A stretch of 64,000 nucleotides of DNA from Bacteroidales bacterium (GTDB lineage Bacteria > Bacteroidota > Bacteroidia > Bacteroidales > VadinHA17): positions 3,300 to 67,299 of the forward strand of contig JBBRSO010000003.1 of NCBI GenBank assembly GCA_038245405.1, given 5' to 3'. Under the pieces are notes generated by a model that was given only the letters and a program-made list of their open reading frames with translations, did no database searches and had not been told where the DNA came from. Positions 36,272-53,660 of the stretch are shown here, in pieces (within the stretch, counting starts at the first letter, position 1; every line of letters starts with the position of its first letter). The position numbers and the translations under genes were made by a program.

Positions 36272-37555
36272 TCAACCCAATGACCCGTAAACCCTCGATA
36301 AATCCTCTGACATTTTCGCCAGCGAGAGCTTACCCAGTACATTCTCTTTTCCCTCTTTCCCCAGTTTAAATCGTAGTTCATGATCGTTTAACACTTTCAA
36401 CAGACTTTGAGCAAGTTCTGAAACAGTATCCGGTGAATAAGTAATTCCGCCACCTGTTATTTTCACTATTTCCGGAAATGCACCGGTTGCAGGTTGAACA
36501 ACAGGCACACCATGTAAATTTGCCTCAAGAAGATACAATCCATATCCATCGTATTTTCTTACGGGAACACTCATTACATCTATGTTACTGAAGAATGCTT
36601 TTTTGCTGTCACCCTGGAACTCATGATAAATTTTAACAAAGCTCTTCAATCCGTTCTTTTTAATTTTTCTAATCTGCTCTGCAATTAAAGGTTTATCGTC
36701 ACCAGTGAATCCGCCGGAAATATGAAGAGTCAGACCAGGAATCTGATTACCTTTTTTCAGTTCGATAAAAGCATCAACGAGCTTATCAATTCCATTATGT
36801 GAACTTATCCTGCAGTAATATCCTATTGCCGGGAAGTAGTCATTTTTCTCAATGGTCAGATCCCGATCAAATCCAAGAGGAACTACATGAATATTATCTC
36901 CTTTGATGCCAGTTTTTGAAATAAAGAGCTCTTTGTAGTAATTGCTTGGCGTGAGGAAAGAGTCTACATTTGAGGCTTCCCGTGCTATAAGTTTCCATGA
37001 ATTGGACTGATATGGTTCGGCCATTTCATTAACCCAGTCATCTTCATTAAGAAGCGAACAGACGATTTTCACGTCAATTTTCTTTTTAATCTGTCGCGCC
37101 AGACCAATTATCAGTGCATTTGAAAGATGAATTATATCCGGTTTACCATCTTTCGACAGATAGTCGATCAAGCGTTGCAGCTCTTTCTCCGGAAATGCAT
37201 TTTCTCCTTTTATCATATTCAATGTCATCTCCTCGAGACCTTCTGTACGAGTCGTTCCTGCTCTTTTTGCGGCCATCTTAAGCATAGGAGCAGAGTCAAA
37301 GATCTTGTCAAGAAAGACTGGCATGTTTTTAAGAAACGGAACTTTCTCTCTCAGATACATTGAAATTGCACCGAAAAAAACATTTTTATCGAGTCCCGAT
37401 TCTACTGTAGATTCATCAGGAGGCAGATACAGCGGGATAGCCGAAGCAATTGTTCCGGGTACTTTCCTGATTGCCCGAAGATAAATCATATCGCGGTAGC
37501 AATTCCCGCAATAAAATGATCCACCGGATCCTGTTATCAGATAAACAATTTTCAT
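36272..37555 (-). CDS. GT4-family (GT-B fold) glycosyltransferase
   Basis: 427 aa. C-terminal GT1/GT4 motif ...GYGLYLLEANLHGVPVVQPATGAFPEIV... Confidence 0.8.
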   Translation of the reverse strand: MKIVYLITGSGGSFYCGNCYRDMIYLRAIRKVPGTIASAIPLYLPPDESTVESGLDKNVFFGAISMYLREKVPFLKNMPVFLDKIFDSAPMLKMAAKRAGTTRTEGLEEMTLNMIKGENAFPEKELQRLIDYLSKDGKPDIIHLSNALIIGLARQIKKKIDVKIVCSLLNEDDWVNEMAEPYQSNSWKLIAREASNVDSFLTPSNYYKELFISKTGIKGDNIHVVPLGFDRDLTIEKNDYFPAIGYYCRISSHNGIDKLVDAFIELKKGNQIPGLTLHISGGFTGDDKPLIAEQIRKIKKNGLKSFVKIYHEFQGDSKKAFFSNIDVMSVPVRKYDGYGLYLLEANLHGVPVVQPATGAFPEIVKITGGGITYSPDTVSELAQSLLKVLNDHELRFKLGKEGKENVLGKLSLAKMSEDLSRVYGSLG

Positions 37556-37575: not shown

Positions 37576-37664
37576 CCACCCCCTTCTTACCCCCAACCCC
37601 CTAAAGGGGGCTTCAAATCAAGAAAATGGAAGTATTGGAACCCCCTTTAGGGGGCAGGGGGTTT
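37576..37664. repeat. double C5/G5 hairpin element
   Basis: ccacccccttcttacccccaaccccctaaaggggg...ccccctttagggggcagggggttt. The second hairpin contains the last codons (PPAP) and the stop of the upstream propeller gene. Confidence 0.55.
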
Positions 37665-38777
37665 CTTACTACCGAATGCCATCAATCTACCATCCTCTGT
37701 CAGAATAAAAAACTTTCCGATTATAACAGCCGGAGAGCTGCTGACAGGAGTTCCTGCATTAAAACTCCACAGTTTTTTTCCATCAGATAACGCCAAAATA
37801 TTCACAAATCCATCCATTCCTGAAAATAGAACTTTGTCTGAGGTGACTACAGCTGACCCGGTTACTCTTCCTTTGGTTCGGTATTTCCAGAGCAATTTGC
37901 CATCAGCGGAATTGTAGCAATAAAGATATTTATCTTCACTTCCTATCACAATTGAATTATTTCCGATTGCAGGTATCGCTAAGATTGAACCAGCTTCTGC
38001 GTTGGGATTAATTCTCCAGGCGATTTTTTTTGTTTTTGTATTTACGCAGTAATTAGTGCCGTCATAATCGCCGAAATATGCAAAATCCTGTGAAAGGGCA
38101 GGGGATGAAGCAATATAAACACCAATATTTACCGTATCCTTTTGTTTCCCGGTTAGCGGATCAACTATTCTTATCATTCCATCACATCCTCCAAATACAA
38201 TTTTTCCGTTCAGGATGGCAGGTGTACCGTTTATATAATTCTCAGTCTCTACTTTCCACATCATCTTGCCTGTTTCCGGATTTACACAATGCAGATAATA
38301 ATCGTAGCTCCCGAATACTATGCCGGCCTTGTTCCCGGAAACCCAAACATTTGCTGAACCGGCAATCTGGTTGTCGGTGACGTATTTCCATAGCAGTTTA
38401 CCGGTTGCTTTATCGACAGCTGTAAGGACTCCTTCGTTTGTACCAAATATGATCTTCTTGCCAAATACCAAAGGAGCTGCGTCAATTGAACTGCCTGATT
38501 CGTACTTCCATTTTATCTGGCCATCGCTGCTTACGGAAATAAGGGATCCTTTTTCATTGCCGAAGTAAATTGTCCCTTCGCTTATTACTGGTGAAGATTT
38601 TGTAGAAGCACCTGTTTTAGTACTCCATAGAAGCTCCGGGGTCACCGGAAGAGCAATATTCGTGCGGCCCGACAAGTCTGATTTGCCTCTGAATAATGGC
38701 CAGTCATCGCTGCCGTTCTGAGCTTCTGAGATCAATGAGAAGAGAAGAAAAAGAGTTGGAATGATAAAATATCGCAT
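37647..38777 (-). CDS. exported PQQ-like (BamB-type) beta-propeller repeat protein, paralogue 5
   Basis: 376 aa. Signal peptide, DWPLFRG start motif, and repeated G-x-hydrophobic-x-A-hydrophobic-D...G-K-x-L-W-K blades. Confidence 0.75.
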   Translation of the reverse strand: MRYFIIPTLFLLFSLISEAQNGSDDWPLFRGKSDLSGRTNIALPVTPELLWSTKTGASTKSSPVISEGTIYFGNEKGSLISVSSDGQIKWKYESGSSIDAAPLVFGKKIIFGTNEGVLTAVDKATGKLLWKYVTDNQIAGSANVWVSGNKAGIVFGSYDYYLHCVNPETGKMMWKVETENYINGTPAILNGKIVFGGCDGMIRIVDPLTGKQKDTVNIGVYIASSPALSQDFAYFGDYDGTNYCVNTKTKKIAWRINPNAEAGSILAIPAIGNNSIVIGSEDKYLYCYNSADGKLLWKYRTKGRVTGSAVVTSDKVLFSGMDGFVNILALSDGKKLWSFNAGTPVSSSPAVIIGKFFILTEDGRLMAFGSKKPPAP

Positions 38778-38827
38778 TTATAAATTTATTAACAAATTTA
38801 TTTTCCTAAAATCAGCCCCCATCCTTG

Positions 38828-38922
38828 GCAACCCCCTAAATCCCCCATTTGGGGGACTTTGGCTTCTCAACAACCCTCGGCTGGCGTTCTTAGCCCCCCA
38901 TTTGGGGGGGTGGGGGGTTGCC
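38828..38922. repeat. composite C5/G5 nested-hairpin element
   Basis: gcaaccccctaaatcccccatttgggggac...ttcttagccccccatttgggggggtggggggttgcc, a homologue of 8176-8287. It encodes the last ~20 residues and the stop of the FeS-protein ORF. Confidence 0.6.
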
Positions 38923-40018
38923 AGGGGCAGGCAGAGTTTTTGCCATATGCCCTTCGCCCTGTTCTCTGCGCCATCAGGCTCAGAGCTCCAGTCGGACAAA
39001 CATCCACAACCTCTTTGCTTTTTGTCTTAAGAATATCATTAAAATCTTCTGTAAGAGGCTCCGATATTATGCTTATAAATCCCCTGTTAATAAAACAGAG
39101 TGCAGGTTCTTCATCCATCTGTTCACAAAGCCTTACACATAGGCCACATTTGATACATTTTGCGTTTTCAAATATCAGACCAGTACTTACATTTATCTTC
39201 TTTCGTGCCGGAGAATTCACAATTTTACCCCTTGGATCTTTTACTGAAAACTCGTCGGCAATATCCCTCAGCCTACAATCATCAGCAGCTCTGCAATCAC
39301 AATGCATACAGCTCCCTGCTTCAGTCTGTGCAGAAGTTGAATCGGTTATTTCCCTTGACCTTTTGTCGCCGTTAGTGCATTCTTTGAGCCATTCTGTTAA
39401 TTCTTCATGTTCCAGTTTTCCAATCCTTGAGGTGAATCTCTTAGAAGCTTTTTCTGAGGTACCTGATTTCTCAGAGTTATGATTTCCCTGATTTGTTTGC
39501 TGATAAATAAATATCTGCAGGTTTCTTATTGAGACTGGCAGGTCAATTTTTTTCCTTCTGCAGGCATTTTCGCAGTAGGCAGCACAACAGATGCATTTTA
39601 ACTCAGCATCTTTTGTCTGACCTGCCGATAGCTCAACAGCGCCCCTAAAATCACCTGAGCTCAATAGCCTGTTCAACCGAGGCACATCATAACCGGCAGG
39701 ACATACGACATGACAAGGCGCCTCACATTCGGCGCGATGTTCGGAAAGCAGCATTTCAACTGCCTTTTTTCTTAATGACACTACCTGTTCCGATTCTGTA
39801 TCAATATCCATACCTTCCTGTGTAAGTGCGGAGCAGGAGGGTAGAAAATTGCCGGTCCTGTTGTCTTTAACCATACAGACCATACAGGATGAATAATGTG
39901 GCAATCCTTCCTTATGGCATAAGGTAGGGATATATATACCGCATGATTTTGCAAATTCCTGAATAGTCAGGCCATCTGCAACTTCATATTCTATATTATT
40001 TATTTTCAGCTTAACCAT
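38867..40018 (-). CDS. 2Fe-2S plus multi-[4Fe-4S] electron-transfer protein with no catalytic domain
   Basis: 383 aa. NuoG/HydA-like N-terminus (KINNIEYEV...IPTLCH...CMVCMV), then HRAECEAPCHVVCPAG, CICCAAYCENAC, CMHCDCRAADDC, CIKCGLCVRLCE and VCPTGA. No signal peptide. The C-terminal ~20 aa derive from the repeat. Confidence 0.75.
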   Translation of the reverse strand: MVKLKINNIEYEVADGLTIQEFAKSCGIYIPTLCHKEGLPHYSSCMVCMVKDNRTGNFLPSCSALTQEGMDIDTESEQVVSLRKKAVEMLLSEHRAECEAPCHVVCPAGYDVPRLNRLLSSGDFRGAVELSAGQTKDAELKCICCAAYCENACRRKKIDLPVSIRNLQIFIYQQTNQGNHNSEKSGTSEKASKRFTSRIGKLEHEELTEWLKECTNGDKRSREITDSTSAQTEAGSCMHCDCRAADDCRLRDIADEFSVKDPRGKIVNSPARKKINVSTGLIFENAKCIKCGLCVRLCEQMDEEPALCFINRGFISIISEPLTEDFNDILKTKSKEVVDVCPTGALSLMAQRTGRRAYGKNSACPWQPPTPPNGGLRTPAEGC

Positions 40019-42434
40019 TTATGTTAATGATTTCAATTGCTTCCTCCGGGCAAACTATTCTACAATTATCACACTTAGTGCAAATTGACTGATCTATCTC
40101 ATGCTTTTCATAAGGTTTGAAGGGAATAGCTTTTACCGGACAATCCTGTGAGCATTTTGTGCACCCGGTGCAATTGTCAGTTATATTATATTTTATGAGT
40201 GGCTGGCACTTATTGGCCCTGCAGATTCCCCTGGTATGTTCTTCATATTCCTCCCTGAAATATTTCAAACCAGTGAGAACCGGGTTAGGAGAAGTCTTAC
40301 CTAGTCCGCACAAGCTACCCTCCTTAACAAATTTACAGAGCTCTTCAAGAGCATTGAGATCTTCAAGAGTGGCTTTCCCTTCAGTTAAAGAGGTGAGTAT
40401 ATTGAGCATCTGTTTTGTGCCGATCCTGCAGAAAGTACATTTACCGCACGACTGCTTGTGTGTGAACGTAAGGAAATACTTAGCCATATCAACCATGCAG
40501 TCGGTATTGTCAAGAACAACCATACCACCGGATCCCATCATAGCGCCCATCTTCATAAGTTCCTCATAGTCAATTGCAGTATCAGCTTTACCAGCAGGAA
40601 TGCAACCACCGGAAGGTCCACCTATCTGAACTGCTTTAAACGTGTTGCCGTCGGCAATGCCATCACCGATATTCTCTACAATTTCGCGGATTGTGGTACC
40701 CATGGGTACTTCTATCAGACCACCTTTGGATATCTTGCCGGCGAGAGCAAAGACTTTCGTTCCCTTGCTCTTTTCTGTGCCTACTGCAGCAAATGCCGAT
40801 GCTCCGTTATTTATGATCCATGGCACGAGAGAGAGGGTTTCTACATTGTTGACAAGGGTTGGCTCTCCCAGATAACCTTTCACAGCAGGATAAGGCGGTC
40901 TTAGATGAGGTGTACCTCTTTTCCCTTCAAGTGAGGCTATGAGAGCTGTTTCCTCACCGCAAACAAATGCTCCGGCTCCTTCAAAAATATTTATATCGAA
41001 CGAGAAAGAACTACCGTTGATGTTGCTTCCCAGTAATCCGTTTTCATAACAATGTTTAAGAGCTATTCTTATTCTTGTTACAGCCAGCGGGTATTCAGCC
41101 CTGATATAGAAAATACCTTCTCTGGCGCCTGTGGCATAGCCTCCTATTACCATCCCCTCGATTACCCTGTAGGGAAACGACTCAAGCAACATTCTGTCCA
41201 TAAAGGCCCCAGGATCGCCTTCATCGCCATTGCATACTACATATTTATATTCTCCGGGAGTATTATATGAGATAGACCATTTTCTGCCGGTAGAAAAACC
41301 AGCTCCTCCACGTCCTCTCAGACCGCTGTCGGTGATTGTTTTTATAATTGACAACTTGTCGTTTTCCGCATAGCATTTATTCAATGCCTTAAAACCTCCT
41401 TTTTCCTGATATTCAAAAATTGATTCAGGGGAAAGAATCCCACCGTTTTCAGTAGCAATATGGACCTGTTTGTTAAGAAAATTATTCAGATATTTCTCAC
41501 GGATGTCAACAGGCAGATTCAACTGTCCTGTTAACTTATCATCTGAAAGAAATGTATCGACAATATCATTAATCTTAGATTTTATCCTCTTATTTAATTT
41601 GCCCGGACGAATGTGCTTCAGAAGAATTTCTTCAACCTGCGATATGGTTACTTTTGTATATCTTGAATGTACGTTCTCCTTTGTCACAATTTCCATCAGG
41701 GGTGTCTGATTGCAAACTCCCACACAGCCGACCTGCTTAAGGCTTATATTGAGATTATACCTTTCTTTTATTGCAAATATTTCGGAAAGTATCTCTTTAC
41801 TTCCTCCGGCAACACAACATGAACCTATACCTATTCTGACCTCCGCAACTTCGTTTCCATCGGTGGTTGACCCGGAAACTTCCTGAACTTTTTGTCCGTT
41901 GATTTTAAAATCATGTATTATCTCATCGATCTGTGTTGGTTTCACATGTCCGTATGTTTTATTATCTATCTGAACGACAGGTGCAAGGGTACAACAGCCA
42001 AGACAGGCAACCTCTTCGATGGAAAACAGATTATCAGGTGACGCATTACGACTATTATCAATTTTCAATGTCCTTTTAAAAGCGTCCGATATCAGGGGGC
42101 TGCCTTTCACGTGACAGGCAGTTCCAGAACAAATTTTTATGGTGTGTTTTCCTACAGGAAGATGTCTGAACTGTGTATAGAAAGTAGATACACCCGAAAT
42201 CTGACCTGGTGTTATATCAGTTACTTTGCAGATGTATCTGAGTGCGTCAGATGACAGCCAGTTTAGCTTTTTCTGGACTTCCTGAAGAATCATTATCACT
42301 TTGCCTGATTCGGTTCCTGTGAGCTTTATTACCTCGTCAATAGCCGAATACATTTCTTCCGGGGAAGATTGTTTACCACCACAGCAAGTATCCAATATCT
42401 CGTTTTTTTCCGTATTCAATTTTCTGTAATGCAA
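40011..42434 (-). CDS. fused NuoE/HndA - HndB - NuoF/HndC NAD(P)H-oxidising flavoprotein with a C-terminal 2x[4Fe-4S] ferredoxin
   Basis: 807 aa. NuoE-type 2Fe-2S (CSGTACHV...CLGCC), a second thioredoxin-like 2Fe-2S (GSCCVAGG...CVGVC), the NuoF core (GLRGRGGAGFSTGRKW; SCGKCTFCRIG) and two CxxCxxCxxxCP motifs. The start is uncertain: TTG at 42434, first ATG at 42353. Confidence 0.85.
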   Translation of the reverse strand: MHYRKLNTEKNEILDTCCGGKQSSPEEMYSAIDEVIKLTGTESGKVIMILQEVQKKLNWLSSDALRYICKVTDITPGQISGVSTFYTQFRHLPVGKHTIKICSGTACHVKGSPLISDAFKRTLKIDNSRNASPDNLFSIEEVACLGCCTLAPVVQIDNKTYGHVKPTQIDEIIHDFKINGQKVQEVSGSTTDGNEVAEVRIGIGSCCVAGGSKEILSEIFAIKERYNLNISLKQVGCVGVCNQTPLMEIVTKENVHSRYTKVTISQVEEILLKHIRPGKLNKRIKSKINDIVDTFLSDDKLTGQLNLPVDIREKYLNNFLNKQVHIATENGGILSPESIFEYQEKGGFKALNKCYAENDKLSIIKTITDSGLRGRGGAGFSTGRKWSISYNTPGEYKYVVCNGDEGDPGAFMDRMLLESFPYRVIEGMVIGGYATGAREGIFYIRAEYPLAVTRIRIALKHCYENGLLGSNINGSSFSFDINIFEGAGAFVCGEETALIASLEGKRGTPHLRPPYPAVKGYLGEPTLVNNVETLSLVPWIINNGASAFAAVGTEKSKGTKVFALAGKISKGGLIEVPMGTTIREIVENIGDGIADGNTFKAVQIGGPSGGCIPAGKADTAIDYEELMKMGAMMGSGGMVVLDNTDCMVDMAKYFLTFTHKQSCGKCTFCRIGTKQMLNILTSLTEGKATLEDLNALEELCKFVKEGSLCGLGKTSPNPVLTGLKYFREEYEEHTRGICRANKCQPLIKYNITDNCTGCTKCSQDCPVKAIPFKPYEKHEIDQSICTKCDNCRIVCPEEAIEIINING

Positions 42435-44110
42435 AAAAGATTTTTCCTTCCTCTTATATAAATACTCTTATATGAGAATGCGGGAGAGCAATCTGTCGCT
42501 TCACCGATCGCAGACTCACCAATAAGCTTAAATATGCCGTCAGCATTAACAATATGCATCATCCCGCCTCTGTCGAGATAATACACTTTCTCGTCCGCAA
42601 CGATAGGTGATGCATAAAAGGGATCCTGAAAAAAGTGTGTCCATGCGGTGTCACCTTTTGAAGCGTTATAGCATGCCACATCTCCGTTTCCGGTTGAAAG
42701 AAACAAATACTTATCTGTTGCAACCGGGCTTGACACATCGGGGGTATAAGCATTATCTTCCCAGCTAATAACAGGGGTGTTTCCCGGCTTTATTGCCACA
42801 AGCTTTGCGTAATCTGTTACAGCATAAGCTGTTGTGCTGTTTACCGCAACCGACGGTGCAACATCACCGCTCATACATTCAATTTCCCAAAGCGCTTTGC
42901 CTGTTACCGGGTCAAAGCTGCTGACAGCAGGATTACCGTTAATTATGAGCTGTGGTATGCCATTAAAATTAGCCAGAACAGGAGATGACCATACAGCGTG
43001 CCCATTCCTCAGAGTTTCCCATTTCTGGTCCCCAGTCTCAGGATCAAAACCGATAAGCGAGATTTTCACATTGCTGTCGAATTGTAGAAGAAGAGTATTC
43101 TCATACACCAGAAGTGAGGAGGAGTATCCATAGCTGCTTTCAGGAACACCAATATTTTTTGCCCATTTTTTGTTACCTTCCATATCAAAGCAAGCAAGGT
43201 TCCCATTTGCAAACACGGCGAATACTGCTTTCCCGTTTGTAGCAACTGTAGATACCGCTAGTCCGGCTTCAGGATCTGTCTTTGGCAATTCCGCTGGTTC
43301 ACCTGATATCTCAGAGGCGACGCCTGTCCAGAGAATTTTACCATCCTTTTTATCGATACAATAGACTTCACATATCTTGTCTCTTGCACCCGTTATAAAT
43401 AGCTTATCTTCCCAGATAACAGGGGAACTCTTGCCTCTGCCCGGCACTTCAATTTTCCACTTTATATTTTTTCCTGATGCAGCGTCCCATTCTGTGGGAT
43501 AATCTGTCCCGCCAGCTATAGCGCGGCTATCCTGCCCGCGGAATGCAGGCCAGTTTGTCTTATCTGGCTTAAAAGTTTTTCCGCTTCCTGCCGGTTCTTT
43601 TTCTTTCGAAACCGGCGACTTACCCGACAGATCGGGAAGACTTGCTCTGAGCAGGAATGAAGAGATAACAGCAAGAATAAATATAAGAGAGACTGATGAA
43701 ACAATAAATTTACGATTTCTGTTCCGGCCGGCTTCGCCATCTGGTTTTATATCGGTTAAAACGGGAGCAGGTTTTTCATTATCAGCAATAATCCTCTGAC
43801 AAATTACAAACACTATTATCCCGGCAAGCAGGAGGTATGAACCTGTTTCAACCTGCCATCTGGAACTGAAATATGCTTTCCTGGCCATAAGATCCATTGC
43901 CCGGATCTGCGCGGCTTTCTCACCTCCACCCGGATCTTTGTCGAACTGTTCCTTCACCGTCAGCAATATCGGGTTATCAAGTGGATTCACAATTTTCAGC
44001 TGCACAAATGTTAAGATCATTGTCATTGCAACAAGAAGTGCAAATCCCAACGAGATCTGACTGACAACCTTAAGTATACTGATATCACTTTCAGTAATTT
44101 TGACCTTCAT
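42416..44110 (-). CDS. PQQ-like beta-propeller fused to an N-terminal multi-TM domain, paralogue 4
   Basis: 564 aa. About three hydrophobic helices in the first 160 aa, then NWPAFRG and propeller blades. Confidence 0.75.
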   Translation of the reverse strand: MKVKITESDISILKVVSQISLGFALLVAMTMILTFVQLKIVNPLDNPILLTVKEQFDKDPGGGEKAAQIRAMDLMARKAYFSSRWQVETGSYLLLAGIIVFVICQRIIADNEKPAPVLTDIKPDGEAGRNRNRKFIVSSVSLIFILAVISSFLLRASLPDLSGKSPVSKEKEPAGSGKTFKPDKTNWPAFRGQDSRAIAGGTDYPTEWDAASGKNIKWKIEVPGRGKSSPVIWEDKLFITGARDKICEVYCIDKKDGKILWTGVASEISGEPAELPKTDPEAGLAVSTVATNGKAVFAVFANGNLACFDMEGNKKWAKNIGVPESSYGYSSSLLVYENTLLLQFDSNVKISLIGFDPETGDQKWETLRNGHAVWSSPVLANFNGIPQLIINGNPAVSSFDPVTGKALWEIECMSGDVAPSVAVNSTTAYAVTDYAKLVAIKPGNTPVISWEDNAYTPDVSSPVATDKYLFLSTGNGDVACYNASKGDTAWTHFFQDPFYASPIVADEKVYYLDRGGMMHIVNADGIFKLIGESAIGEATDCSPAFSYKSIYIRGRKNLFCITEN

Positions 44111-44111
44111 C

Positions 44112-45446
44112 TTAAACTTTCACTTTAATTGGACAATACTTAAAACATCTTCCGCAGCTATAACACTTACCCTGGTGCGGCTTATATTCGATTCTTTTGT
44201 TTCTTACACTCAATGAGATCATCCCTATGCCGAAGGATATACCAAGAAATGCACCAACCCATGGTGATCCGGCCTCAAATCTTCTGATAACCAGACCTTC
44301 TTCAGCAAATAATTCAGTTTCTGTTTTGCCTGATTCCTTGAATGTGGCAACTGTTTTCAGATCTGATTCTATACCCGTCGTTTGTTCAGCTCTTATTTCC
44401 CTGGCGAGTCTTACAGTATTGTTAACCGACGAAAGAGAAGGAGCGAGGTTGAAAAGAAGAAAGGCTCCGGCAACTGCAAAAACTGGCACAAACACGAAAT
44501 AAAGCATGAATCGTTTTCTGGATTTTGTCGGTTCTTCTTTAGTCTGGACTATATCTGAAGGCAGTATAGCATCATACGGACATGCATGTTCACATAAACG
44601 GCAATTGGTGCATTCAGCTGGTGTTATTGTGAGATGTTTTCCGGCAAACCTTGAAAAAATATTGAGAAGAACTCCATAAGGGCAGAGAAACCTGCAATAT
44701 GGCCGGTTGACAAATACCCCGGTTAAAAGCAAGAGAACGCCAAATATTACCATTGTATAAGGCGCATCGAGCCTGAAGATACCTACAAACGGATCATATC
44801 TGCATACTATGAACTGACTGTTGGTCGATGCAAATAATATTGCTAGTCCCAGATATATAAAGGGCACGAATGCTAAAAACAAGTCTACATATTTTGGAAG
44901 CTTCAGGGGTTTTAATCCCGTTAATTCCTGAATAGCGCCCAGAGGGCAAACTCCAGCGCAGAATACCCTTCCGTATGCGAGTGAGAATAGTAACGGAATA
45001 GTGAAAAATAACAATGCTGTTACCGGGATCGAATACCCAGTATTAAAAAGGGCCAGCGATACATTCTGAACGGATCCGACGGCACAGATACATCCTTCTC
45101 TGTAAAAACCAAAATATGCCAGGGAAAATACAGACATCCAGATCAATCCTCTCCGTGAACGTTTCTTTAGTGCCAGCCATGTTGTTACTATCAGTGCGGC
45201 AATCAATACAGCAACGTCAATATATTCCATAAAAGGCGCTCTGGGAGCAGCAAACTGTACGGTTGGATAAATATGTCCCGATTCAAACTCCGGCCTCGGA
45301 AAGCGATCCTGTGCGAATACCGCAAAATGCCAGCCAAGGAGCAAGAGGAAAACTATATATGGTAATGCTTTTTTCAACTTAGGTCCCCCATGCCCCCCTG
45401 AAGAAGAGTTCATTTGGATATGTTTATGATAATTATTCTTACTCAT
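44112..45446 (-). CDS. NapH/MauN/NosH-like integral-membrane polyferredoxin
   Basis: 444 aa. Multiple TM helices, two CxxxCP motifs at helix ends (RVFCAGVCPLGA, RPYCRFLCPYG), CTNCRLCEHACP and C-terminal CYSCGRCFKYCP. Confidence 0.75.
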   Translation of the reverse strand: MSKNNYHKHIQMNSSSGGHGGPKLKKALPYIVFLLLLGWHFAVFAQDRFPRPEFESGHIYPTVQFAAPRAPFMEYIDVAVLIAALIVTTWLALKKRSRRGLIWMSVFSLAYFGFYREGCICAVGSVQNVSLALFNTGYSIPVTALLFFTIPLLFSLAYGRVFCAGVCPLGAIQELTGLKPLKLPKYVDLFLAFVPFIYLGLAILFASTNSQFIVCRYDPFVGIFRLDAPYTMVIFGVLLLLTGVFVNRPYCRFLCPYGVLLNIFSRFAGKHLTITPAECTNCRLCEHACPYDAILPSDIVQTKEEPTKSRKRFMLYFVFVPVFAVAGAFLLFNLAPSLSSVNNTVRLAREIRAEQTTGIESDLKTVATFKESGKTETELFAEEGLVIRRFEAGSPWVGAFLGISFGIGMISLSVRNKRIEYKPHQGKCYSCGRCFKYCPIKVKV

Positions 45447-45463
45447 GTTACATTTTCTCTTTG

Positions 45464-45493
45464 TTTCTCTGTGCTTCTCAGTGTCAATCTGTG
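45464..45493 (-). repeat. phased 10-bp array (CACAGAG-type, x3) upstream of the NapH-like gene
   Basis: Coding-strand reading: CACAGATTGA CACTGAGAAG CACAGAGAAA, ending 17 nt before ATG 45446. Same word, period and gene-relative orientation as 8336-8365. Confidence 0.5.
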
Positions 45494-45516
45494 TAAGTTT
45501 TTCCGACTTCCGGCAT

Positions 45517-46077
45517 CTACTTATCCTTCGGCAAATACGCCACGCTTGCCGGGATCCTGCTTATGGCATTTGACGGACAAGTTCTTGCTATCGAACAATC
45601 ATTGCAATTAACACAGATATCGTGCTGTATCTGCATATGCAACGACCCGTTTCCGAAGTCACCGCAACCCTTCACACATTTAGCACAGCCATCGCATAAT
45701 GTCTCATCAATGGTATATTCAAAATATGGTTCCTCCACAAATTTTCTTTTTATTGCACCTACGGGACATAACTGGTTTTCCGCTCCGGTACTGATAGTCT
45801 TGGCACCCTGCCTCAGATATCCCCCGCAAAGATCGCAATATCCACACATCCTGTACGCATGCATACATTTAGACGCAGAAGGTGTGAGCACACAGTTTGT
45901 CTTGCATTGACCGCACTGTGTGCATTTATGTGGATCGATCTGCCAGACATATCCGGTCAAATGAGTCTTTTTAATGAGAAAAGCAGGAATAATCACCAAT
46001 GGAGCTGCAACAATTATTTTCCCGGCTGTTCTCACAAAATCGCGCCGCGATTGATATTTATTCTTTTCCATATTCAT
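45517..46077 (-). CDS. Tat-exported NapG/MauM-like ferredoxin (four Cys clusters)
   Basis: Twin-arginine signal QSRRDFVRTAG plus a hydrophobic region. Cys motifs CTQCGQCKTNC, CGYCDLCGG...CPVGA, CDGCAKCVKGC and CVNCNDCSIARTCP. The track start TTG 46092 is replaced by ATG 46077 (46071 is also possible). Confidence 0.75.
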   Translation of the reverse strand: MNMEKNKYQSRRDFVRTAGKIIVAAPLVIIPAFLIKKTHLTGYVWQIDPHKCTQCGQCKTNCVLTPSASKCMHAYRMCGYCDLCGGYLRQGAKTISTGAENQLCPVGAIKRKFVEEPYFEYTIDETLCDGCAKCVKGCGDFGNGSLHMQIQHDICVNCNDCSIARTCPSNAISRIPASVAYLPKDK

Positions 46078-46118
46078 ATTAAAGAATTTCAATATTTAAA
46101 ATTCCATCTACAGGGTAT

Positions 46119-46150
46119 CAAAGTCCTCCTTGGGGGGATATAGGTGGTCC
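46119..46150. repeat. C/G-run hairpin element (partial copy)
   Basis: caaagtcctccttggggggatataggtggtcc, a homologue of caaagtccccccctggggggatttagggggttt at 46358-46390. Confidence 0.4.
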
Positions 46151-46155
46151 TGCAA

Positions 46156-46320
46156 TTAATATTTATTACAGTCAGTCTTGCCATTACAAATGCCTTTACC
46201 GGCACATGTATTACAATTATTCGCTGCAACAACCTTGTTTCCAAGTAAGAGTACAATCACTGCCATAATCATCAGCAGCACATATCTTCCGAGTTTTTTT
46301 AGCAGTTCGTTTCTGGTCAT
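46156..46320 (-). CDS. 54-aa peptide: Tat-like signal/anchor plus a 4-Cys tail
   Basis: MTRNELLKKLGRYVLLMIMAVIVLLLGNKVVAANNCNTCAGKGICNGKTDCNKY. TRNELLK resembles S/T-R-R-x-F-L-K. A hydrophobic core follows, then C-x2-C-x5-C-x5-C. Co-oriented between the ferredoxin and NHL genes. Coding status unproven. Confidence 0.4.
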   Translation of the reverse strand: MTRNELLKKLGRYVLLMIMAVIVLLLGNKVVAANNCNTCAGKGICNGKTDCNKY

Positions 46321-46334
46321 TTTCGTTTGTTTTA

Positions 46335-46390
46335 TCCCCACCCTGAAGGGCGGGGTTCAAAGTCCCCCCCTGGGGGGATTTAGGGGGTTT
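46335..46390. repeat. C/G-run double hairpin element
   Basis: tccccaccctgaagggcggggttcaaagtccccccctggggggatttagggggttt. It overlaps the stop of the NHL-like gene. Confidence 0.5.
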
Positions 46391-47306
46391 TACGGTTAAA
46401 TACATACAGCTTCGAATCCCCCGGATAGGCTGCATAGATAGTCTTTCCATCTATTGACGCCAAATCAAGCGGAACCGATTTGATAAAGTTATTATGTGAA
46501 CTCACAAACTCTACAAATTCTCCTTTCTTATCGAGAATTTTTATCCTGTTAATACCTTTTTCAGCAGTAACAAAGCCATCGGGCACAACTATAAAATGTG
46601 GTGGTGCGCAACAGCCGCAGAAATTGTTTGGTCCGGCACCAGGCTGTCCGAAATAGCTAAGCACATCGCCATTAATATTTCTGGTTTCGACTCTGTGTTT
46701 CCCTGTATTAGCCGTAAACAAATTATTATTCATGTCAAGTACTACCTCAAAATACGGACTAGGGATAGAAAACTGTTTATCACCCTGGCCAATCATTTTC
46801 TTTACCTCACCACCTTTGTCGAGTACGAATACAACTCTCGAGCCAGCATCGGCAAAAGCCACATACTTTTTATTTGCAGTAACTGACGTTATCAGGCTGC
46901 TGTCTTCAAATGGACCCCAGTCGCTGAGTAATTTCCCTCCTTTATCGATCACAAGGATCTGACTGGCTGTTGATGCGAATATTGAATCGCCGGAATTAGA
47001 CAGTGCAGTGACAGGTGCAGAAGTTTTTAAATTCCATATTAATCTGAGATTGCTATCGTAGCATGAAACAAAAGAATCTCCGCCAAGGTAGATCTTGCCA
47101 TCTGAAACAGATACTGCTTCCAGTTTGCCTTCATCAACCTTGAATTCTCTTGTGATTGCCCAGGCGTCGGGGATGACTGCACTATCCGGGTTTATTGTTT
47201 CGACCTTTTCCGAGCCTGATGATTTTGAAACATCAAAGATGATATACCCGATAAAAACAACTATAACCAGAACAGAAAGAACAGATATTAGTTTCTTGTT
47301 CATCAT
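46380..47306 (-). CDS. membrane-anchored NHL-like six-bladed beta-propeller protein
   Basis: About 308 aa from ATG 47306. N-terminal TM (LISVLSVLVIVVFIGYIIF), NHL-like blades (FSIPSPYFEVVLDMNNNLFTANTGKHRV) and an unusual FCGCCAPPHF segment. Confidence 0.65.
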   Translation of the reverse strand: MMNKKLISVLSVLVIVVFIGYIIFDVSKSSGSEKVETINPDSAVIPDAWAITREFKVDEGKLEAVSVSDGKIYLGGDSFVSCYDSNLRLIWNLKTSAPVTALSNSGDSIFASTASQILVIDKGGKLLSDWGPFEDSSLITSVTANKKYVAFADAGSRVVFVLDKGGEVKKMIGQGDKQFSIPSPYFEVVLDMNNNLFTANTGKHRVETRNINGDVLSYFGQPGAGPNNFCGCCAPPHFIVVPDGFVTAEKGINRIKILDKKGEFVEFVSSHNNFIKSVPLDLASIDGKTIYAAYPGDSKLYVFNRKTP

Positions 47307-47310
47307 GAGC

Positions 47311-48762
47311 TTATTTACCAATATTCAGGCATAATAAATTTCTCGCATCCCTCATTATGAGGTATTGACCCGCAATTGCCATCGGACCCCAGGCTTCAAT
47401 GCCCTTTAGTATCTTATGGCTTGCTATTAGAGTAACACTGTTATTATTAATCTTAAAAAAATATAATTGTCCGTCATCATCCAGCAGATAAAGCTTATCT
47501 CCGCTGACAATATATGGTCCGAGGCCTCTTCCAAACCTGTTTTCCTTGCCACTTGTCCATACAGGCTTCAGGAGATCTGATTTGTTGTAGCACACAAGCT
47601 GTTTCTTAAGAGGACCGGCATTCTCAGGGAGAACACTCCATATAAAATCGCCAACCAGGATAGGAGTTTGCTGGTCGCTGGTAAGCCCGTTTGATGCTTT
47701 ATGCTGTTCCTTGACGGAGGCAGAATATCCGGAACCGGTGCTGGTGATGGCTATTCTTGCTCCACCGGCGCCATAGCTTCCAAACACCACAATTTCGTTA
47801 TTTCCAAGGTAGAGAGGGGAGGCGGCTGTTGTAGCAGGGCTCCACTGGGTGGTAGTCCACATTAATTTACCTAAATCTCCGGACTCAGCTGAAACTCCGC
47901 AAACACCACCTACTGCGTTATATACATACATTCTTTTACCAGAAATATTCATAGGCATAATAGAGCCATGAGACATCCTGAGAGAGTCCTTATTAGGAGT
48001 CTGCCATACAATTTTTCCGGACTTACAGTCAACACCAATCATCAGAGCTTTTCCTCCGGGTGCAATAACTGCTATATCATTATCAATTAGCGGACACTGT
48101 CCCGAATAGAAATCTGGTGTTATCCTCCCTTTTTCGCTACCCTTGATCCCGAATTCAGTTTCCAGATCAATTGACCACAGCATAGAGCCTGTGACAGGGT
48201 CTACACACATAACATGAGAACGTGGGCCTATGGTAACTACATATTTATCAGTCACTGCAGGGATAGTTCGGGAATAACCATGATTTCTTTTCAACTCCAC
48301 ATTGTACCATCTTCTCCAAAGTTCTTTGCCTGATGCAAGGGAGAAACACCTGAGTGCATCCGCTTTTTTCCGTTCATTATAATCGAGAAGATAAACTCGG
48401 CCATTATGAACAACCGGTCCTGCATAGCCTTCACCAAGTGTGGTTTTCCAGATTATTGCCGGTCCTGTGGTATCCCATGATTCTGCAAGCTTAGTAGTGT
48501 CTTTGCTTATATTGTCTCTGTCGGGCCCCCTGAAGCCCGGCCAGTCTCCCGGCAATAACTGGTCAATCGTTCCCATTGTATCAAAGAATTCTCCTATGAT
48601 TACCGAATCGTTTTTAGCTTCCATTTTTGGACGGTCATCCATTCCCGGTACTCTCTCAGTAAATGCTTTAGCTGGTGAATTAACTAACCACCATCCGCCT
48701 GCGAAGGTAAAAACAAGCAGAATGATTATTATAAAATTGTTATTTCTTCTCCCGGCTAACAT
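47311..48762 (-). CDS. PQQ-like beta-propeller protein with N-terminal anchor, paralogue 3
   Basis: About 483 aa. TM anchor, then DWPGFRGPDRDN...GEGYAGPVVHNGRVYLLDY...LRCFSLASGKELW, clearly paralogous to 50144-51448. Confidence 0.75.
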   Translation of the reverse strand: MLAGRRNNNFIIIILLVFTFAGGWWLVNSPAKAFTERVPGMDDRPKMEAKNDSVIIGEFFDTMGTIDQLLPGDWPGFRGPDRDNISKDTTKLAESWDTTGPAIIWKTTLGEGYAGPVVHNGRVYLLDYNERKKADALRCFSLASGKELWRRWYNVELKRNHGYSRTIPAVTDKYVVTIGPRSHVMCVDPVTGSMLWSIDLETEFGIKGSEKGRITPDFYSGQCPLIDNDIAVIAPGGKALMIGVDCKSGKIVWQTPNKDSLRMSHGSIMPMNISGKRMYVYNAVGGVCGVSAESGDLGKLMWTTTQWSPATTAASPLYLGNNEIVVFGSYGAGGARIAITSTGSGYSASVKEQHKASNGLTSDQQTPILVGDFIWSVLPENAGPLKKQLVCYNKSDLLKPVWTSGKENRFGRGLGPYIVSGDKLYLLDDDGQLYFFKINNNSVTLIASHKILKGIEAWGPMAIAGQYLIMRDARNLLCLNIGK

Positions 48763-48770
48763 CAGCAATA

Positions 48771-50015
48771 TCAGGTGTTTTTAATATTATATACCCTCAG
48801 GACTTTGCCATGACGCATGTACAGTTTTTTATTATGAATAACGGGATGAGCCCAATAAGGTCCTGATCCTTTCGTGATCCTGAATGAACTGACAAGGTTA
48901 AATTTCGAAGGATCTGGTTTTACCAGACCTACATTACCCGATCTTTCATCATAGATATACAACATATCCTCGGCAGCAATTATTGAGCCTTTACATTTCC
49001 AATGCTCTTCGTATTTCTTTGCTCCGGTATTCCAATCTATGCAGCACCAGTTCCCATCACTGTTGCTAAGCCAGTTTGACCCATATATATAACCATTCAA
49101 CAACACAACACCACCATGATGAACATCGAGAACATTGTCTTTCCAGGCAACTGTAACATTATTTCCACCATCGGTGAGTTTAAGCATAAATGCTCCGTGA
49201 TCGTAGCCGCCGGTTATATAAATCATTCCATCTTTGTAAAGTGGTGTGACGCATTTTATGACTTCTGCTTTATCAGGATTAATATCAAGGTGTTTTACTT
49301 TCCAGATTATCTTACCGCTTGTTGGATCAACGGCAAAAACATAGCTGGCTGAGACATTAACTATAAATTTTCTTCCAGAATAATTGACTAAAAGTGGTGA
49401 AACATATGCCGGATTATCATTCAGGCTTGCTGATTTCCAAAGAAGCTTACCCGTGTTTTTATCTAAAGCAATCATCATTGTTTCTGGTCCTCCGGGGGTA
49501 AAGTATAATCTGTTACCATCAACAATCAGCGATTCTGCAATACCCCATGGTCCATAAGTGCCTTTATTAGTTTCACTTGCCTTTAGTGACCATATTATCG
49601 AGCCGTTTATAGCATCAATGCAAGCCAGATCACCGTATCCGCTACTGACATATACCTTGTTGCCCTCCACAGTTGGTGTACACCTGGTTTCAGGATATGA
49701 GCCATTCCATGAGCGTCCGTACGGAGCCTTCCATTTTATTTTGCCCGTTGTGTCCATTGAGACAAGAATATCCTTGTTATCACTTATACCGGTGATATAG
49801 ACTGAATTATTACCAAAGGTTACTGACGAGAAGCCCGAGGGCAAATCCTCATTCGACCACAACAGTGCGGGGCCATTTTCAGGCCATGATTTTAGCAGAC
49901 CTTTTTCAGAAGAGACTCCTGTGCGGTTATCTTCTCTCCATTCACTTATTTTCTGGGCAATTGTTAAATTAACAGTTGTAATAAAAATCAGAAAAATTAT
50001 TGACAGTTTCTTCAT
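48771..50015 (-). CDS. exported PQQ-like beta-propeller protein, paralogue 2
   Basis: 414 aa. Signal peptide and blades with GxIxWK/GKLLWK motifs. Ends ...GKVLRVYNIK. Confidence 0.75.
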   Translation of the reverse strand: MKKLSIIFLIFITTVNLTIAQKISEWREDNRTGVSSEKGLLKSWPENGPALLWSNEDLPSGFSSVTFGNNSVYITGISDNKDILVSMDTTGKIKWKAPYGRSWNGSYPETRCTPTVEGNKVYVSSGYGDLACIDAINGSIIWSLKASETNKGTYGPWGIAESLIVDGNRLYFTPGGPETMMIALDKNTGKLLWKSASLNDNPAYVSPLLVNYSGRKFIVNVSASYVFAVDPTSGKIIWKVKHLDINPDKAEVIKCVTPLYKDGMIYITGGYDHGAFMLKLTDGGNNVTVAWKDNVLDVHHGGVVLLNGYIYGSNWLSNSDGNWCCIDWNTGAKKYEEHWKCKGSIIAAEDMLYIYDERSGNVGLVKPDPSKFNLVSSFRITKGSGPYWAHPVIHNKKLYMRHGKVLRVYNIKNT

Positions 50016-50143
50016 TATTGAAAGTATATTAAGTTGAACGGCAAAATTATACTTTTTAATATATCTTCAAGTATTATGACTAAAACTTCCAGTTTAATTT
50101 TTCATCGAAGATCGCGGTAACCCCAGGAATGCAAATTCATCTG

Positions 50144-51448
50144 TTACTTAACAATTTTTACACACATCAGCCGGCTCTGATCCCTGATAAGGAGCTTGCC
50201 ATCTGCAAGTGCTGGAGGAGCCCAGTTCTGTGTTGAAAATTTTGGGTTAGCATTTGCATCCACAGCAAGCAATCCTGCTGTTGCAATAGGTTTATAGGCT
50301 GTGGGGTCAGGTTCAATAAGAACAAGGTTTTTACTACCATCGGTGGCAATTATTATCCCATCAGCAACAATCAGACCGCCTTTATCAAATAGGGGAGACC
50401 TTGAAGTTTTCCATTTGATCTTTCCGTCCATACTCATACAAACCAGACCATCTTTTCTTTCATTGGTAGTATATTGAGCATAGAAATTTCCATTACACAA
50501 AACCGGAGGCATTGTATGGGCTCCAAAATCAGGATTCTTAAAAAGTTCTGTAACTCCAAAACTGCCATCGGATTTTTTTTCAACTTTTATCATAGCAGCG
50601 CCAGCCTGATATCCTCCCGTGACCAGTATCTTACCATCACCGGCATCAACAACGCCCGGAACAGGAATAGAGCATTGCCAGTTAGTATATTCCCATAGAA
50701 TCTTACCAGTGAGCGGATCAATGCCAACTACTTTTCCGCCTGAACCTGTTTCACCATAACCAGCGCGTGATGATGCTGAGATCATAACAACCTGGCTAGC
50801 TCCGCCAATTTTTACAATTTCAGGACTAACATATCCAACCGCTCCAATTACCGGAGTAGTCCATTTTACCTTTCCCGTAAGCTTTTCGTATGCTACCACA
50901 CCTGCCTTGGGTGCCTGCGAAGCGAGTATCAACAGATCACCGTAAACAACAGGGCACTGGGTTATTGCCCAAGTCGGAATCTGACCACCGCCATAATCGG
51001 TCCAGACATTCTTTGTCCAAACAGGTTTGTGAGTATTTATATCGATACAATATAGATTACCGTATGGGCCGCATGTATAAATCATATTGCCATCAAGTGT
51101 TGGAACACTGCGTGAACCAGGGAACATAACTGACCCGGGAGCGCCATACGCAAAATTCCAGAGCTCTTTTCCACTCGTGAGATCAAAGCATCTTAGATTA
51201 TCTCCAACTTTGTCGTCACGGTCGAGAAGATATACCTTGCCGTTCCTGACAACCGGACCACCATAACCTATGCCCACATTAACAGTCCATAATACTTCGG
51301 GGCCTTTTGCGGGCCATGATCTGATAATGCCTTTCTGTGCAGACACTCCATTCCTTGTCGGACCAAGATACTGCGGCCAGTCCTGTGCTAATAAGTTTGT
51401 GCATAGTAATAAAAAAACGACAGGGATATAAATCTTAAGTGCTTTCAT
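50144..51448 (-). CDS. exported PQQ-like beta-propeller protein, paralogue 1
   Basis: 434 aa. Signal peptide (cleavage after LLAQ), then DWPQYLGPTRNG...GIGYGGPVVRNGKVYLLDR...LRCFDLTSGKELW. Confidence 0.75.
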   Translation of the reverse strand: MKALKIYIPVVFLLLCTNLLAQDWPQYLGPTRNGVSAQKGIIRSWPAKGPEVLWTVNVGIGYGGPVVRNGKVYLLDRDDKVGDNLRCFDLTSGKELWNFAYGAPGSVMFPGSRSVPTLDGNMIYTCGPYGNLYCIDINTHKPVWTKNVWTDYGGGQIPTWAITQCPVVYGDLLILASQAPKAGVVAYEKLTGKVKWTTPVIGAVGYVSPEIVKIGGASQVVMISASSRAGYGETGSGGKVVGIDPLTGKILWEYTNWQCSIPVPGVVDAGDGKILVTGGYQAGAAMIKVEKKSDGSFGVTELFKNPDFGAHTMPPVLCNGNFYAQYTTNERKDGLVCMSMDGKIKWKTSRSPLFDKGGLIVADGIIIATDGSKNLVLIEPDPTAYKPIATAGLLAVDANANPKFSTQNWAPPALADGKLLIRDQSRLMCVKIVK

Positions 51449-53652: not shown

Positions 53653-53660
53653 CGTTCATA

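Follow-up and report, generated by a model that had tools for sequence, protein, structure and literature searches.

Why should exported beta-propeller proteins be encoded in one run of genes with a cytoplasmic flavoprotein, iron-sulfur (FeS) proteins and a membrane polyferredoxin? The question arises from a 64,000-nucleotide (nt) stretch of DNA (hereafter the window) from a Bacteroidales bacterium (assembly GCA_038245405.1, contig JBBRSO010000003.1, positions 3,300 to 67,299), where eleven co-oriented minus-strand open reading frames (ORFs) lie at 37647-51448, and where a first-pass annotation had proposed an undescribed redox system reaching beyond the cytoplasm. Our preferred answer, which we hold at roughly even odds (about 0.5), is that the cassette encodes one membrane-spanning redox complex, predicted to pass electrons outward from NADH and ferredoxin to periplasmic propellers. 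The observations behind this answer are gene content, domain composition, a conserved synteny and two kinds of gene fusion.

Gene content and conserved gene order

From upstream to downstream, the genes are as follows (aa, amino acids; TM, transmembrane; Tat, twin-arginine translocation).

P434, 50144..51448, minus strand: secreted eight-bladed PQQ_2-type propeller; Pfam PQQ_2 2e-20; N-terminal signal peptide by hydropathy
P414, 48771..50015, minus strand: secreted PQQ_2-type propeller; Pfam PQQ_2 3e-21; WCC motif (C324-C325)
P485, 47311..48768, minus strand: N-terminally anchored eight-bladed propeller; Pfam PQQ_2 8e-33
NHL313, 46380..47321, minus strand: N-terminally anchored NHL-repeat propeller of 313 aa; G-C-C-x-P motif
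pep54, 46156..46320, minus strand: small membrane-targeted peptide of 54 aa; four Cys in a 19-residue C-terminal tail
Fdx191, 45517..46092, minus strand: Tat-targeted periplasmic polyferredoxin of 191 aa; four 4-Cys motifs; Fer4 Pfam matches
NapH421, 44112..45377, minus strand: integral-membrane Fer4_5 polyferredoxin; Pfam Fer4_5 4e-15; ORF up to 45446
TMP564, 42416..44110, minus strand: three TM helices followed by a periplasmic PQQ_2-type propeller; Pfam PQQ_2 6e-27
NuoEF807, 40011..42434, minus strand: cytoplasmic BfuC-BfuB fusion; NuoE-type 2Fe-2S, second 2Fe-2S, NuoF, 2x[4Fe-4S]
FeS383, 38867..40018, minus strand: cytoplasmic truncated BfuA-like FeS protein; Fer2_4, Fer4_20 and Fer4_Nqo3
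P376, 37647..38777, minus strand: secreted PQQ_2/ACSF4-type propeller; Beta-prop_ACSF4 199 bits (cut-off 133), PQQ_2 4e-36
GT4-family glycosyltransferase, 36272..37555, minus strand: Pfam Glycos_transf_1 and Glyco_transf_4
LolD/MacB-type ABC ATPase, 35381..36046, minus strand: NCBIfam LolD 2.7e-64, below cut-off
Duplicated FtsX-type permease of 1083 aa, 32120..35371, minus strand: Pfam FtsX in two stretches; weak YbbP and ADOP matches

The eleven ORFs down to P376 were all recovered where the first-pass annotation had placed them, and the domains, motifs and junctions that it described are present in the sequence. Domains were assigned by Pfam and NCBIfam profile searches (NHL313 and others were also compared with PDB sequences) and topology by a hydropathy scan of the translated proteins. 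These bore out five pyrroloquinoline quinone (PQQ)-like propellers (Pfam PQQ_2, E 2e-20 to 4e-36), a 54-aa Cys-rich peptide at 46156-46320, a ferredoxin with the Tat signal SRRDFV and matches to Fer4 models, a NapH-like polyferredoxin with both of its CX3CP motifs and a Fer4_5 match, an 807-aa fusion in which Pfam finds 2Fe-2S_thioredx, Complex1_51K, NADH_4Fe-4S and a C-terminal Fer4 dicluster, and a 383-aa FeS protein with Fer2_4, Fer4_20 and Fer4_Nqo3; the signal peptides, anchors and multi-TM domains assigned earlier agree with the hydropathy scan. As had been reported, CxxCH occurs in none of the eleven proteins, and their Pfam and NCBIfam scans showed no molybdopterin, H-cluster or copper domain. 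No pqq biosynthesis gene was present among the scanned window ORFs, ORFs upstream of 28539 being outside that scan.

The genes are tightly packed. TMP564 and NuoEF807 overlap by 19 nt, NuoEF807 and FeS383 overlap by 8 nt, and NapH421 and TMP564 are separated by 1 nt (44110/44112). With ATG starts, probably at 47306 for NHL313 and at 48762 for P485, the gaps at these two junctions are 4 nt and 8 nt, respectively. For the NapH-like gene the most likely start is 45377 (421 aa), in agreement with all its relatives, and not the beginning of the full 444-aa ORF.

This arrangement is not peculiar to the window. We scanned one genome per species with a profile of 41 diverse NapH-like relatives, which gave at least 595 candidate relatives, and examined the best 80 by searching the six-frame ORFs of their loci with the window proteins, counting only loci long enough on the relevant side. 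Among these best 80 of at least 595, gene order is nearly constant: one to five P414-like propellers, P485, the NHL propeller, often the small peptide, the Tat ferredoxin, the NapH-like protein, TMP564, NuoEF, the FeS protein and P376. Beside the NapH-like gene we found TMP564 in 64/64 loci, the Tat ferredoxin in 73/73, P485 in 64/65, the NHL propeller in 67/69, the NuoEF fusion in 53/56, the FeS protein in 49/55 (plus two fusions), P376 in 51/53 and P414-like propellers in 59/64. Separate occurrence of propeller and redox genes in related genomes, which the first-pass annotation had named as a sign against its proposal, is thus clearly absent; their presence beside an orthologous NapH-like gene is near-complete. 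Downstream of P376 and on the same strand, GT4 follows in 43/51 loci, the ABC ATPase in 44/51 and the FtsX permease in 40/51, a count limited by locus ends, and the three genes follow P376 in Kiritimatiellae and Calditrichia as well. Because of this downstream conservation we take the cassette to run from about 51448 to 32120, some 14 genes, which keeps the eleven genes of the interval originally proposed (37647-51448) and extends it by GT4, ABC and FtsX.

Carriers are mostly Bacteroidales and Marinilabiliales, joined by Kiritimatiellae, Verrucomicrobiota, Calditrichia, Spirochaetaceae and Pirellulales. Cultured carriers include Labilibaculum, Marinifilum flexuosum, Ancylomarina, Draconibacterium sediminis, Gaoshiqia, Maribellus luteus and Sunxiuqinia elliptica. 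An exact-sequence look-up of the NapH-like protein of the window returned no record, and close relatives were used instead, of which there are thousands in metagenomes: an exhaustive search of 50%-identity representatives gave 396 clusters at 50% identity with E<1e-30, and the top 150 representatives match over their full length at 37-48% identity. The closest cassette, with a NapH-like protein 92% identical to that of the window, lies on a 1.58-Mb metagenomic contig.

Two kinds of fusion join proteins of the cassette. Ten of the top 150 representatives, from independent 50%-identity clusters, are NapH-like proteins that continue into TMP564 (973-1136 aa); their C-terminal halves align end to end with TMP564, its TM domain included, at 218-332 bits, against at most 54 bits for the other propellers. 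In two loci (L033 and L059), the FeS subunit is fused through one signal-peptide-like TM helix to a P376-type propeller, with different linkers. Both kinds are topologically sensible, with FeS domains predicted inside and the propeller outside, and because of them we argue that the proteins would form one membrane complex.

A Bfu-type module and a candidate path across the membrane

The two cytoplasmic proteins had been labelled as a NuoEF/HndABC module. Their NADH-flavoprotein domains agree with that label, and a better description, read from the sequences, is a Bfu-type (HydBC/NfnBC-like) bifurcation module with an NADH/ferredoxin core, related to NfnBC and StnBC. Among PDB sequences, NuoEF807 matches Bfu B subunits best (NfnB 9n5u_B at 1.5e-205, then StnB 8oh5_B and HydB, over a range of 1.5e-205 to 1e-160), with complex-I NuoF far behind at only ~1e-97; the match covers residues 195-803 and includes the C-terminal ferredoxin domain. 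The domain architecture of BfuB, by which the family is defined (PMC9304861), is present, with PF01512 (4e-42), PF10589 (6e-32), a C-terminal Fer4_21/Fer4_7 domain and a weak SLBB (0.005), and so is that of BfuC, with PF01257 (4e-49) at residues 33-176, fused to the B part. All cluster Cys of NuoEF807 are conserved among orthologues. In the closest relative (L001:12944-15370) separate genes of 385 and 404 aa are called for the NuoE-type half and the NuoF-type half, which could be a real split or an assembly frameshift.

FeS383 consists of a 2Fe-2S domain, a GltD-type 2x[4Fe-4S] domain and an FeS domain at the C-terminus; FAD, NADPH and catalytic domains are all missing. Its N-terminal 170 residues match the A subunits 9bov_A, NfnA (9n5u_A) and StnA (8oh5_C), and its conserved Cys are those of Fer2_4 (C34, C45, C48, C62) and of the motif C237-x2-C-x-C-x5-C248, which may correspond to the BfuA A2 cluster. 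In most other clades the A-like subunit has ~520 aa and the FAD Rossmann motif GAGPAGL (e.g., L047:15504-17054), and the Draconibacterium orthologue aligns to residues 4-287 and 425-671 of 9bov_A, skipping the NADPH subdomain (288-424) and stopping before the C-terminal domain. In the clade of the window the subunit measures 355-383 aa and the FAD Rossmann motif has gone too, which on sequence comparison is a lineage-specific domain loss inside a conserved complex. The GltD-like FAD and NADPH domains that define the A subunit of Nfn-Bfu and Stn are not present as a set, the NADPH subdomain being missing in all versions examined. With this subdomain and the part after residue 671 missing, the A subunit would therefore not itself act on a soluble third substrate. 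At its end, the FeS383 ORF runs for ~25 residues into a GC-rich palindromic repeat (38823-38926); orthologues end at 355-362 aa.

The module shares with the Bfu family (HydABC, NfnABC/Nfn-Bfu, StnABC; PMC9304861) the NuoE-type 2Fe-2S domain, the extra 2Fe-2S, the NuoF FMN/NADH domain, the C-terminal 2x[4Fe-4S] and an A subunit that starts like NfnA and StnA. It differs in that C and B are fused, in that A is without a catalytic or NADPH domain, and in its partners, which appear to be a NapH-like membrane protein and periplasmic proteins. Schut et al. (2022) predicted only two membrane-bound Bfu types, Mbh-Bfu and Nuo-Bfu, and left 17-18 clades unassigned (PMC9304861). If the cassette does encode a membrane-bound Bfu complex, it would be a third membrane-linked type of this family and the first Bfu to exchange electrons, in either direction, with the periplasm.

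The membrane partner, NapH421, has invariant Cys across the 41 diverse relatives: GCxCP (C96/C98), two CX3CP, C192 and two CxxCxxCxxxCP motifs, the latter two separated by an extra TM hairpin. Judging from hydropathy and the positive-inside rule applied by eye, the CX3CP and FeS motifs would be cytoplasmic, and GCxCP and C192 periplasmic. No His is conserved in the membrane segments of the 41 relatives, and haem b is unlikely for that reason. The first-pass annotation had described NapH421 and Fdx191 as a NapH/NapG-like pair, a description that holds for the architecture, although neither protein reaches the NapH or NapG family cut-offs. NapH421 scores 59 bits against a NapH/MauN cut-off of 213 (TIGR02163) and 51 against 234 (PRK09477); relative to the NapH layout of four TM helices, two CX3CP motifs and a contiguous C-terminal 2x[4Fe-4S], CX3CP is present, two additional TM helices come between the FeS motifs, and there is a further helix at the N-terminus. 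In Fdx191, conservation at ≥90% extends to R16, R17, F19 and all 16 Cys of the four motifs, and no NapG/MauM family model matches it at E<=0.01, so that its likeness is architectural only. Membership of NosR/NirI also fails for NapH421 (51 bits against 1000, in the membrane/FeS part only, and no FMN_bind domain), and names such as 'NosR/NirI family' on the source records of its relatives are automatic annotations. Against PDB sequences the NapH-like profile found only generic ferredoxin motifs, there being no solved structure of the membrane part for comparison.

As in NapGH, NosGH and MauMN, a Fer4_5 membrane protein with two CX3CP motifs and a cytoplasmic 2x[4Fe-4S] domain adjoins a Tat ferredoxin with four 4-Cys motifs, and the pair adjoins periplasmic propeller proteins; NosZ and the heavy chain of methylamine dehydrogenase are propellers too. 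The cassette differs from these systems in the N-terminal signal peptide/helix, GCxCP motif and inserted TM hairpin of NapH421, in the sub-cut-off scores of both proteins, in having no Nap, Nos or Mau catalytic subunit, cytochrome c, copper or Mo domain, and in the attached cytoplasmic NADH/ferredoxin module.

The sequence of pep54 is MTRNELLKKLGRYVLLMIMAVIVLLLGNKVVAANNCNTCAGKGICNGKTDCNKY. Most loci have a counterpart to it, a short ORF between the genes for the NHL protein and the ferredoxin. In clades other than that of the window, these counterparts have a Tat-like RRxF(L/I) start and the pattern C-x5-C-x2-C-x5-C.

NapH-like PF12801 proteins are regarded as modular transmembrane conduits that serve oxidoreductases of the periplasm, among them the propeller enzymes NirS and ExaA (PMC8238504). 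The flavinylated NapH-like systems described by Meheust et al. (2021) resemble the cassette in that a PF12801 conduit is encoded with eight-bladed periplasmic propellers (PMC8238504). They differ in that the cassette has a Tat ferredoxin in place of an FMN-binding domain and ApbE, a Bfu-type donor, and propellers other than ExaA and NirS (TIGR03075 scores of 22-67 bits, cut-off 480; no haem motif).

On our preferred reading, NuoEF807 would exchange electrons with NADH and ferredoxin and hand them to FeS383, an FeS wire whose usual third-substrate site has been deleted and which would dock on the cytoplasmic 2x[4Fe-4S] domain of NapH421. Electrons would then cross the membrane by way of Cys-ligated centres in NapH421, the two CX3CP motifs inside and GCxCP with C192 outside. 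They would next reach the Tat-exported 4x[4Fe-4S] ferredoxin and the small Cys4 peptide and, from there, a Cys-rich assembly of anchored and soluble propellers made up of TMP564, P485, the NHL protein, P376 and one to five P414-like proteins.

Beta-propellers, direction of flow and competing readings

The propellers are 21-29% identical to each other. P434 and P414 (29%) belong to a variable-copy P414-like family that is present in one to five copies upstream of P485 in relatives and missing from the closest cassettes, L002-L004; its 125 members in related loci share R111, C132, E161, C325, R401 and H402 at ≥80%. The shared N-terminal WPxFRG-type motif that had been ascribed to all five PQQ_2 propellers opens the mature chain of only four. 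WPxFRG is probably a common N-terminal feature of PQQ_2-type propellers, for which reason we set it aside as a mark of this system. The anchored NHL-like propeller with its CGCC motif was rightly recognised: NHL313 contains FCGCCAPP and, with no Pfam match, resembles solved NHL domains (6d69, 1.1e-11; TRIM2 and TRIM71, 1e-6; a weak ScyF NHL match), which by sequence similarity places it among the NHL-repeat propellers, a fold class and not a functional family. Its G236, C237, C238 and P240 are conserved at ≥90%. P376 keeps the motifs SYD and FGGCDG, and in TMP564 three Cys are retained together with a charged loop that links TM1 to TM2. Conserved Cys recur on the periplasmic side: the GCC of the NHL protein, four in the peptide, C188, C225 and C393 of P485, C198 of P376, and C96, C98 and C192 in the loops of the NapH-like protein.

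P485 is the most conserved propeller, with 107/485 residues at ≥90% over 68 orthologues from several phyla and a mean column identity of 54%, and is as conserved as the FeS proteins; its conserved motifs include KRNHGxSRTxPA, GQCP, MSHxS, EQQTP and RFGLGP. An AlphaFold2 model (pLDDT 86.5) gives an eight-bladed propeller behind one TM helix. In this model each of the eight blades would have its own conserved motif directly ahead of the inner strand, and the motifs would ring the opening of the central channel in the order GEG(H/Y)AGP, HGxSRTxPA, GQCP, MSHxS..P, SP, EQQTP, GLGP and AWGP. Foldseek returned only generic eight-bladed propellers for P485, with TM-scores of ~0.55 by query length and ~0.7 by target length, and therefore pointed to no function; the top matches were BamB and tetrathionate hydrolase (14-15% identity, E 1e-16 to 1e-18), cofactor-free PQQ_2-type propellers that share the fold of the model, whereas P485 has invariant motifs of its own. 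Tetrathionate hydrolase is also the best PDB sequence match of the P485 profile (3.6e-6), and was rejected on account of an alignment that is an out-of-register blade repeat. Two further families were rejected for the five PQQ_2 propellers: PQQ-dependent dehydrogenases (22-67 bits against the TIGR03075 cut-off of 480, with PF01011 covering 40-90 of 595 positions) and BamB (33-139 bits against 285 for TIGR03300/PRK11138, with no lipobox seen by eye at the N-termini).

We place the terminal reaction tentatively at the propeller assembly, and take P485 as its catalytic or core subunit because it is the most conserved propeller. In the least certain step, NADH and reduced ferredoxin would be confurcated onto a periplasmic or extracellular acceptor, possibly sulfur or disulfide-type compounds or insoluble/metal acceptors, which would give fermentative anaerobes an electron sink independent of H2. 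GT4 and the MacB-type ABC/FtsX pair might supply, export or assemble something that the periplasmic part needs. We favour outward flow because the cultured carriers whose physiology we considered (Marinifilaceae) are fermenters with excess reductant, because the module occupies the place of the HydABC hydrogenase subunit, and because Labilibaculum carries the cassette and reduces Fe and Mn during fermentation (PMC5760507; PMC9765461). This 'fermentative-type' reduction is explicitly described as lacking a known mechanism (PMC5760507). The position of the Bfu genes between propeller genes also counts for our reading, an argument that Schut et al. apply to Codh-Bfu and Mbh-Bfu (PMC9304861).

A more specific version of the outward reading strikes us as unlikely, though worth stating. 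P485, free of haem, Mo and PQQ, would itself reduce an external acceptor through the Bfu module and the NapH-like FeS conduit, as a new electron-disposal machine; a Cys/His/Gln-lined central face and Cys-rich partners would serve acceptors such as zero-valent sulfur, polysulfide, thiosulfate or Fe/Mn oxides. If true, this would be the first Bfu (confurcating) module wired across a membrane by a NapH-like FeS conduit, and would account for the 'fermentative-type' reduction of acceptors by Bacteroidota and by other heterotrophs of sediments.

Several points weigh against the outward complex. The direction of flow is constrained by none of our results, and for high-potential acceptors a Bfu module is thermodynamically unnecessary. 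In three Bacteroidales/Rikenellaceae metagenome-assembled genomes (L016, L018 and L020), TMP564 is followed directly by P376; NuoEF and FeS are absent at the locus and the rest is kept, so that in these genomes the Bfu module is dispensable or encoded elsewhere. None of the propellers showed a cofactor-binding signature, the P485 model comes closest in fold to a non-catalytic scaffold (BamB) and to the cofactor-free tetrathionate hydrolase, and the apparent clustering of conserved P485 residues was read from a secondary-structure string only. The model also leaves the roles of GT4, ABC and FtsX unexplained, and these genes would also fit an envelope-related role. The redox route to exported propellers put forward in the first-pass annotation is thus partly supported, namely in its architecture, through synteny and the two fusions.

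The likeliest alternative, though we consider it improbable, involves these downstream genes. The propellers would be non-catalytic, BamB-like parts of an envelope-biogenesis or maintenance machine that uses GT4 and the MacB-type ABC/FtsX system; the redox chain would do no more than supply the periplasm with reducing power, for example for holding cysteines in the reduced state or for reducing a glycoconjugate that the glycosyltransferase makes and the transporter exports. The substrates of MacB-type systems are periplasmic or belong to the envelope. In structure, P485 is nearest to BamB; GT4, ABC and FtsX match the redox genes in conservation; and every periplasmic part has conserved Cys. 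On the other hand, some ten FeS clusters and a bifurcating flavoprotein would be a heavy outlay for thiol maintenance, the 54% mean column identity of P485 across phyla is far above expectation for a scaffold of this fold, and all propellers fall far short of BamB in score and show no lipobox by eye.

Less probable again is a coupling to quinone, in which NapH421 would be a menaquinol/menaquinone site, as proposed for NapH, the Bfu module an NADH/ferredoxin:menaquinone oxidoreductase, and the periplasmic ferredoxin and propellers would be fed from the quinol pool, the role proposed for NapGH, NosGH and MauMN. The three genomes that lack the Bfu genes and keep the rest fit a quinol-fed periplasmic module, among named NCBIfam families the membrane protein matches NapH/MauN best, and the third substrates that have been predicted for Bfu enzymes include a quinone (PMC9304861). 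That NapH match, however, is far below cut-off (59 against 213 bits) and comes with no recognisable quinone site, the family's membrane part has no solved structure to compare, and neither the extra TM hairpin nor the fusion to TMP564 is characteristic of NapH.

We think it more doubtful still that electrons run the opposite way, with a low-potential periplasmic or extracellular donor oxidised at the propellers and the Bfu module bifurcating to NADH and reduced ferredoxin, that is, electron uptake. Bfu enzymes are reversible and several of them bifurcate, such as Nfn-Bfu and NiFe-Bfu (PMC9304861), and NapH-like conduits have been proposed to serve periplasmic oxidases as well as reductases (PMC8238504). 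Membrane-anchored PQQ-like propellers (SqpA) have been the subject of speculation about electron uptake in cytochrome-free methanogens (PMC10470525). These SqpA 'quinoproteins' resemble the cassette proteins as TM-anchored, PQQ-like propellers of cytochrome-poor anaerobes with a proposed extracellular electron exchange; they differ in that the proposal is speculative and no FeS conduit or Bfu module is reported, and we liken them by description, not homology. Against uptake, the cultured Marinifilaceae whose physiology we considered are organotrophic fermenters with reductant to spare, and a periplasmic donor near -400 mV is hard to name, with no hydrogenase, formate dehydrogenase or cytochrome domain in the cassette.

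A chance or regulatory adjacency, with an independent cytoplasmic Nfn-like transhydrogenase inside an unrelated periplasmic operon, is very improbable: the A and B subunits are indeed closest to NfnABC and StnABC, and Schut et al. filed the Bacteroidetes members under Nfn-Bfu (PMC9304861), but none of the versions examined has the NADPH-binding subdomain and that of the window has lost the FAD part, the Bfu position between propeller genes is kept across phyla, and the FeS-TM-P376 fusions and the overlapping coding regions in the window also speak against it.

The modules of our preferred reading are of known kinds, namely Bfu enzymes and NapGH-type conduits; their union with a multi-propeller periplasmic module is undescribed. 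In agreement with the first-pass annotation, which knew of no characterised system with this gene set, we found no published description of the combination in the literature searched and no curated family. Of the proteins scanned with Pfam and NCBIfam, none reaches a protein-specific (equivalog-type) model; the models that are passed are generic ones for domains or folds, and the database names of cassette proteins are generic ('polyferredoxin', 'NosR/NirI family', 'BamB family'). The cassette is widespread in anaerobic carbohydrate degraders and offers a candidate answer to how fermentative Bacteroidota reduce Fe(III) and Mn(IV) without classical multihaem machinery (PMC5760507). With several carriers in culture, genetics and biochemistry should be feasible.

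Downstream genes, repeats and flanking DNA

The GT4 protein has an unusual N-terminal motif, GSGGSFYCGNC(L/Y)RD, that puts a CxxC in the nucleotide-sugar-binding half and is also found in the distant orthologues L060 and L042. An Rfam scan of the whole window gave no riboswitch or other match that could name a cofactor. A sigma-70 promoter scan found 55 sites against 49 expected, no more than the level of shuffled sequence; promoters in this phylum also differ from the sigma-70 consensus used in the scan. An excess of terminator-like structures in the window is mostly due to GC-rich palindromic repeats (CCCCCTAAATCCCCC...GGGGG), which occupy intergenic gaps of the cassette at 37589-37662, 38823-38926 and 46358-46389, with a weaker copy at ~46100-46140. 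By sequence they look like REP-type (repetitive extragenic palindromic) intergenic elements.

Upstream of the first propeller gene, a 500-bp AT-rich gap separates it from a divergent asparagine synthase gene and contains three spaced perfect or near-perfect palindromes at 51599-51620, 51648-51668 and 51691-51709 (GGACATCACATGTGATGTCC twice, GGGACACGACATGTCGTGTCCC once), which may be operator sites or hairpins. The divergent genes at 51950-56973 encode the asparagine synthase, a PFL-like glycyl-radical enzyme (790 aa) and its radical-SAM activase; these neighbours are also found in the close relatives L002-L004, and not in distant ones. Further along, 57139-63125 holds a second, separate MacB-type export system (an HlyD-family adaptor, an ABC ATPase and two MacB_PCD/FtsX permeases), followed by a sigma-54-dependent response regulator.

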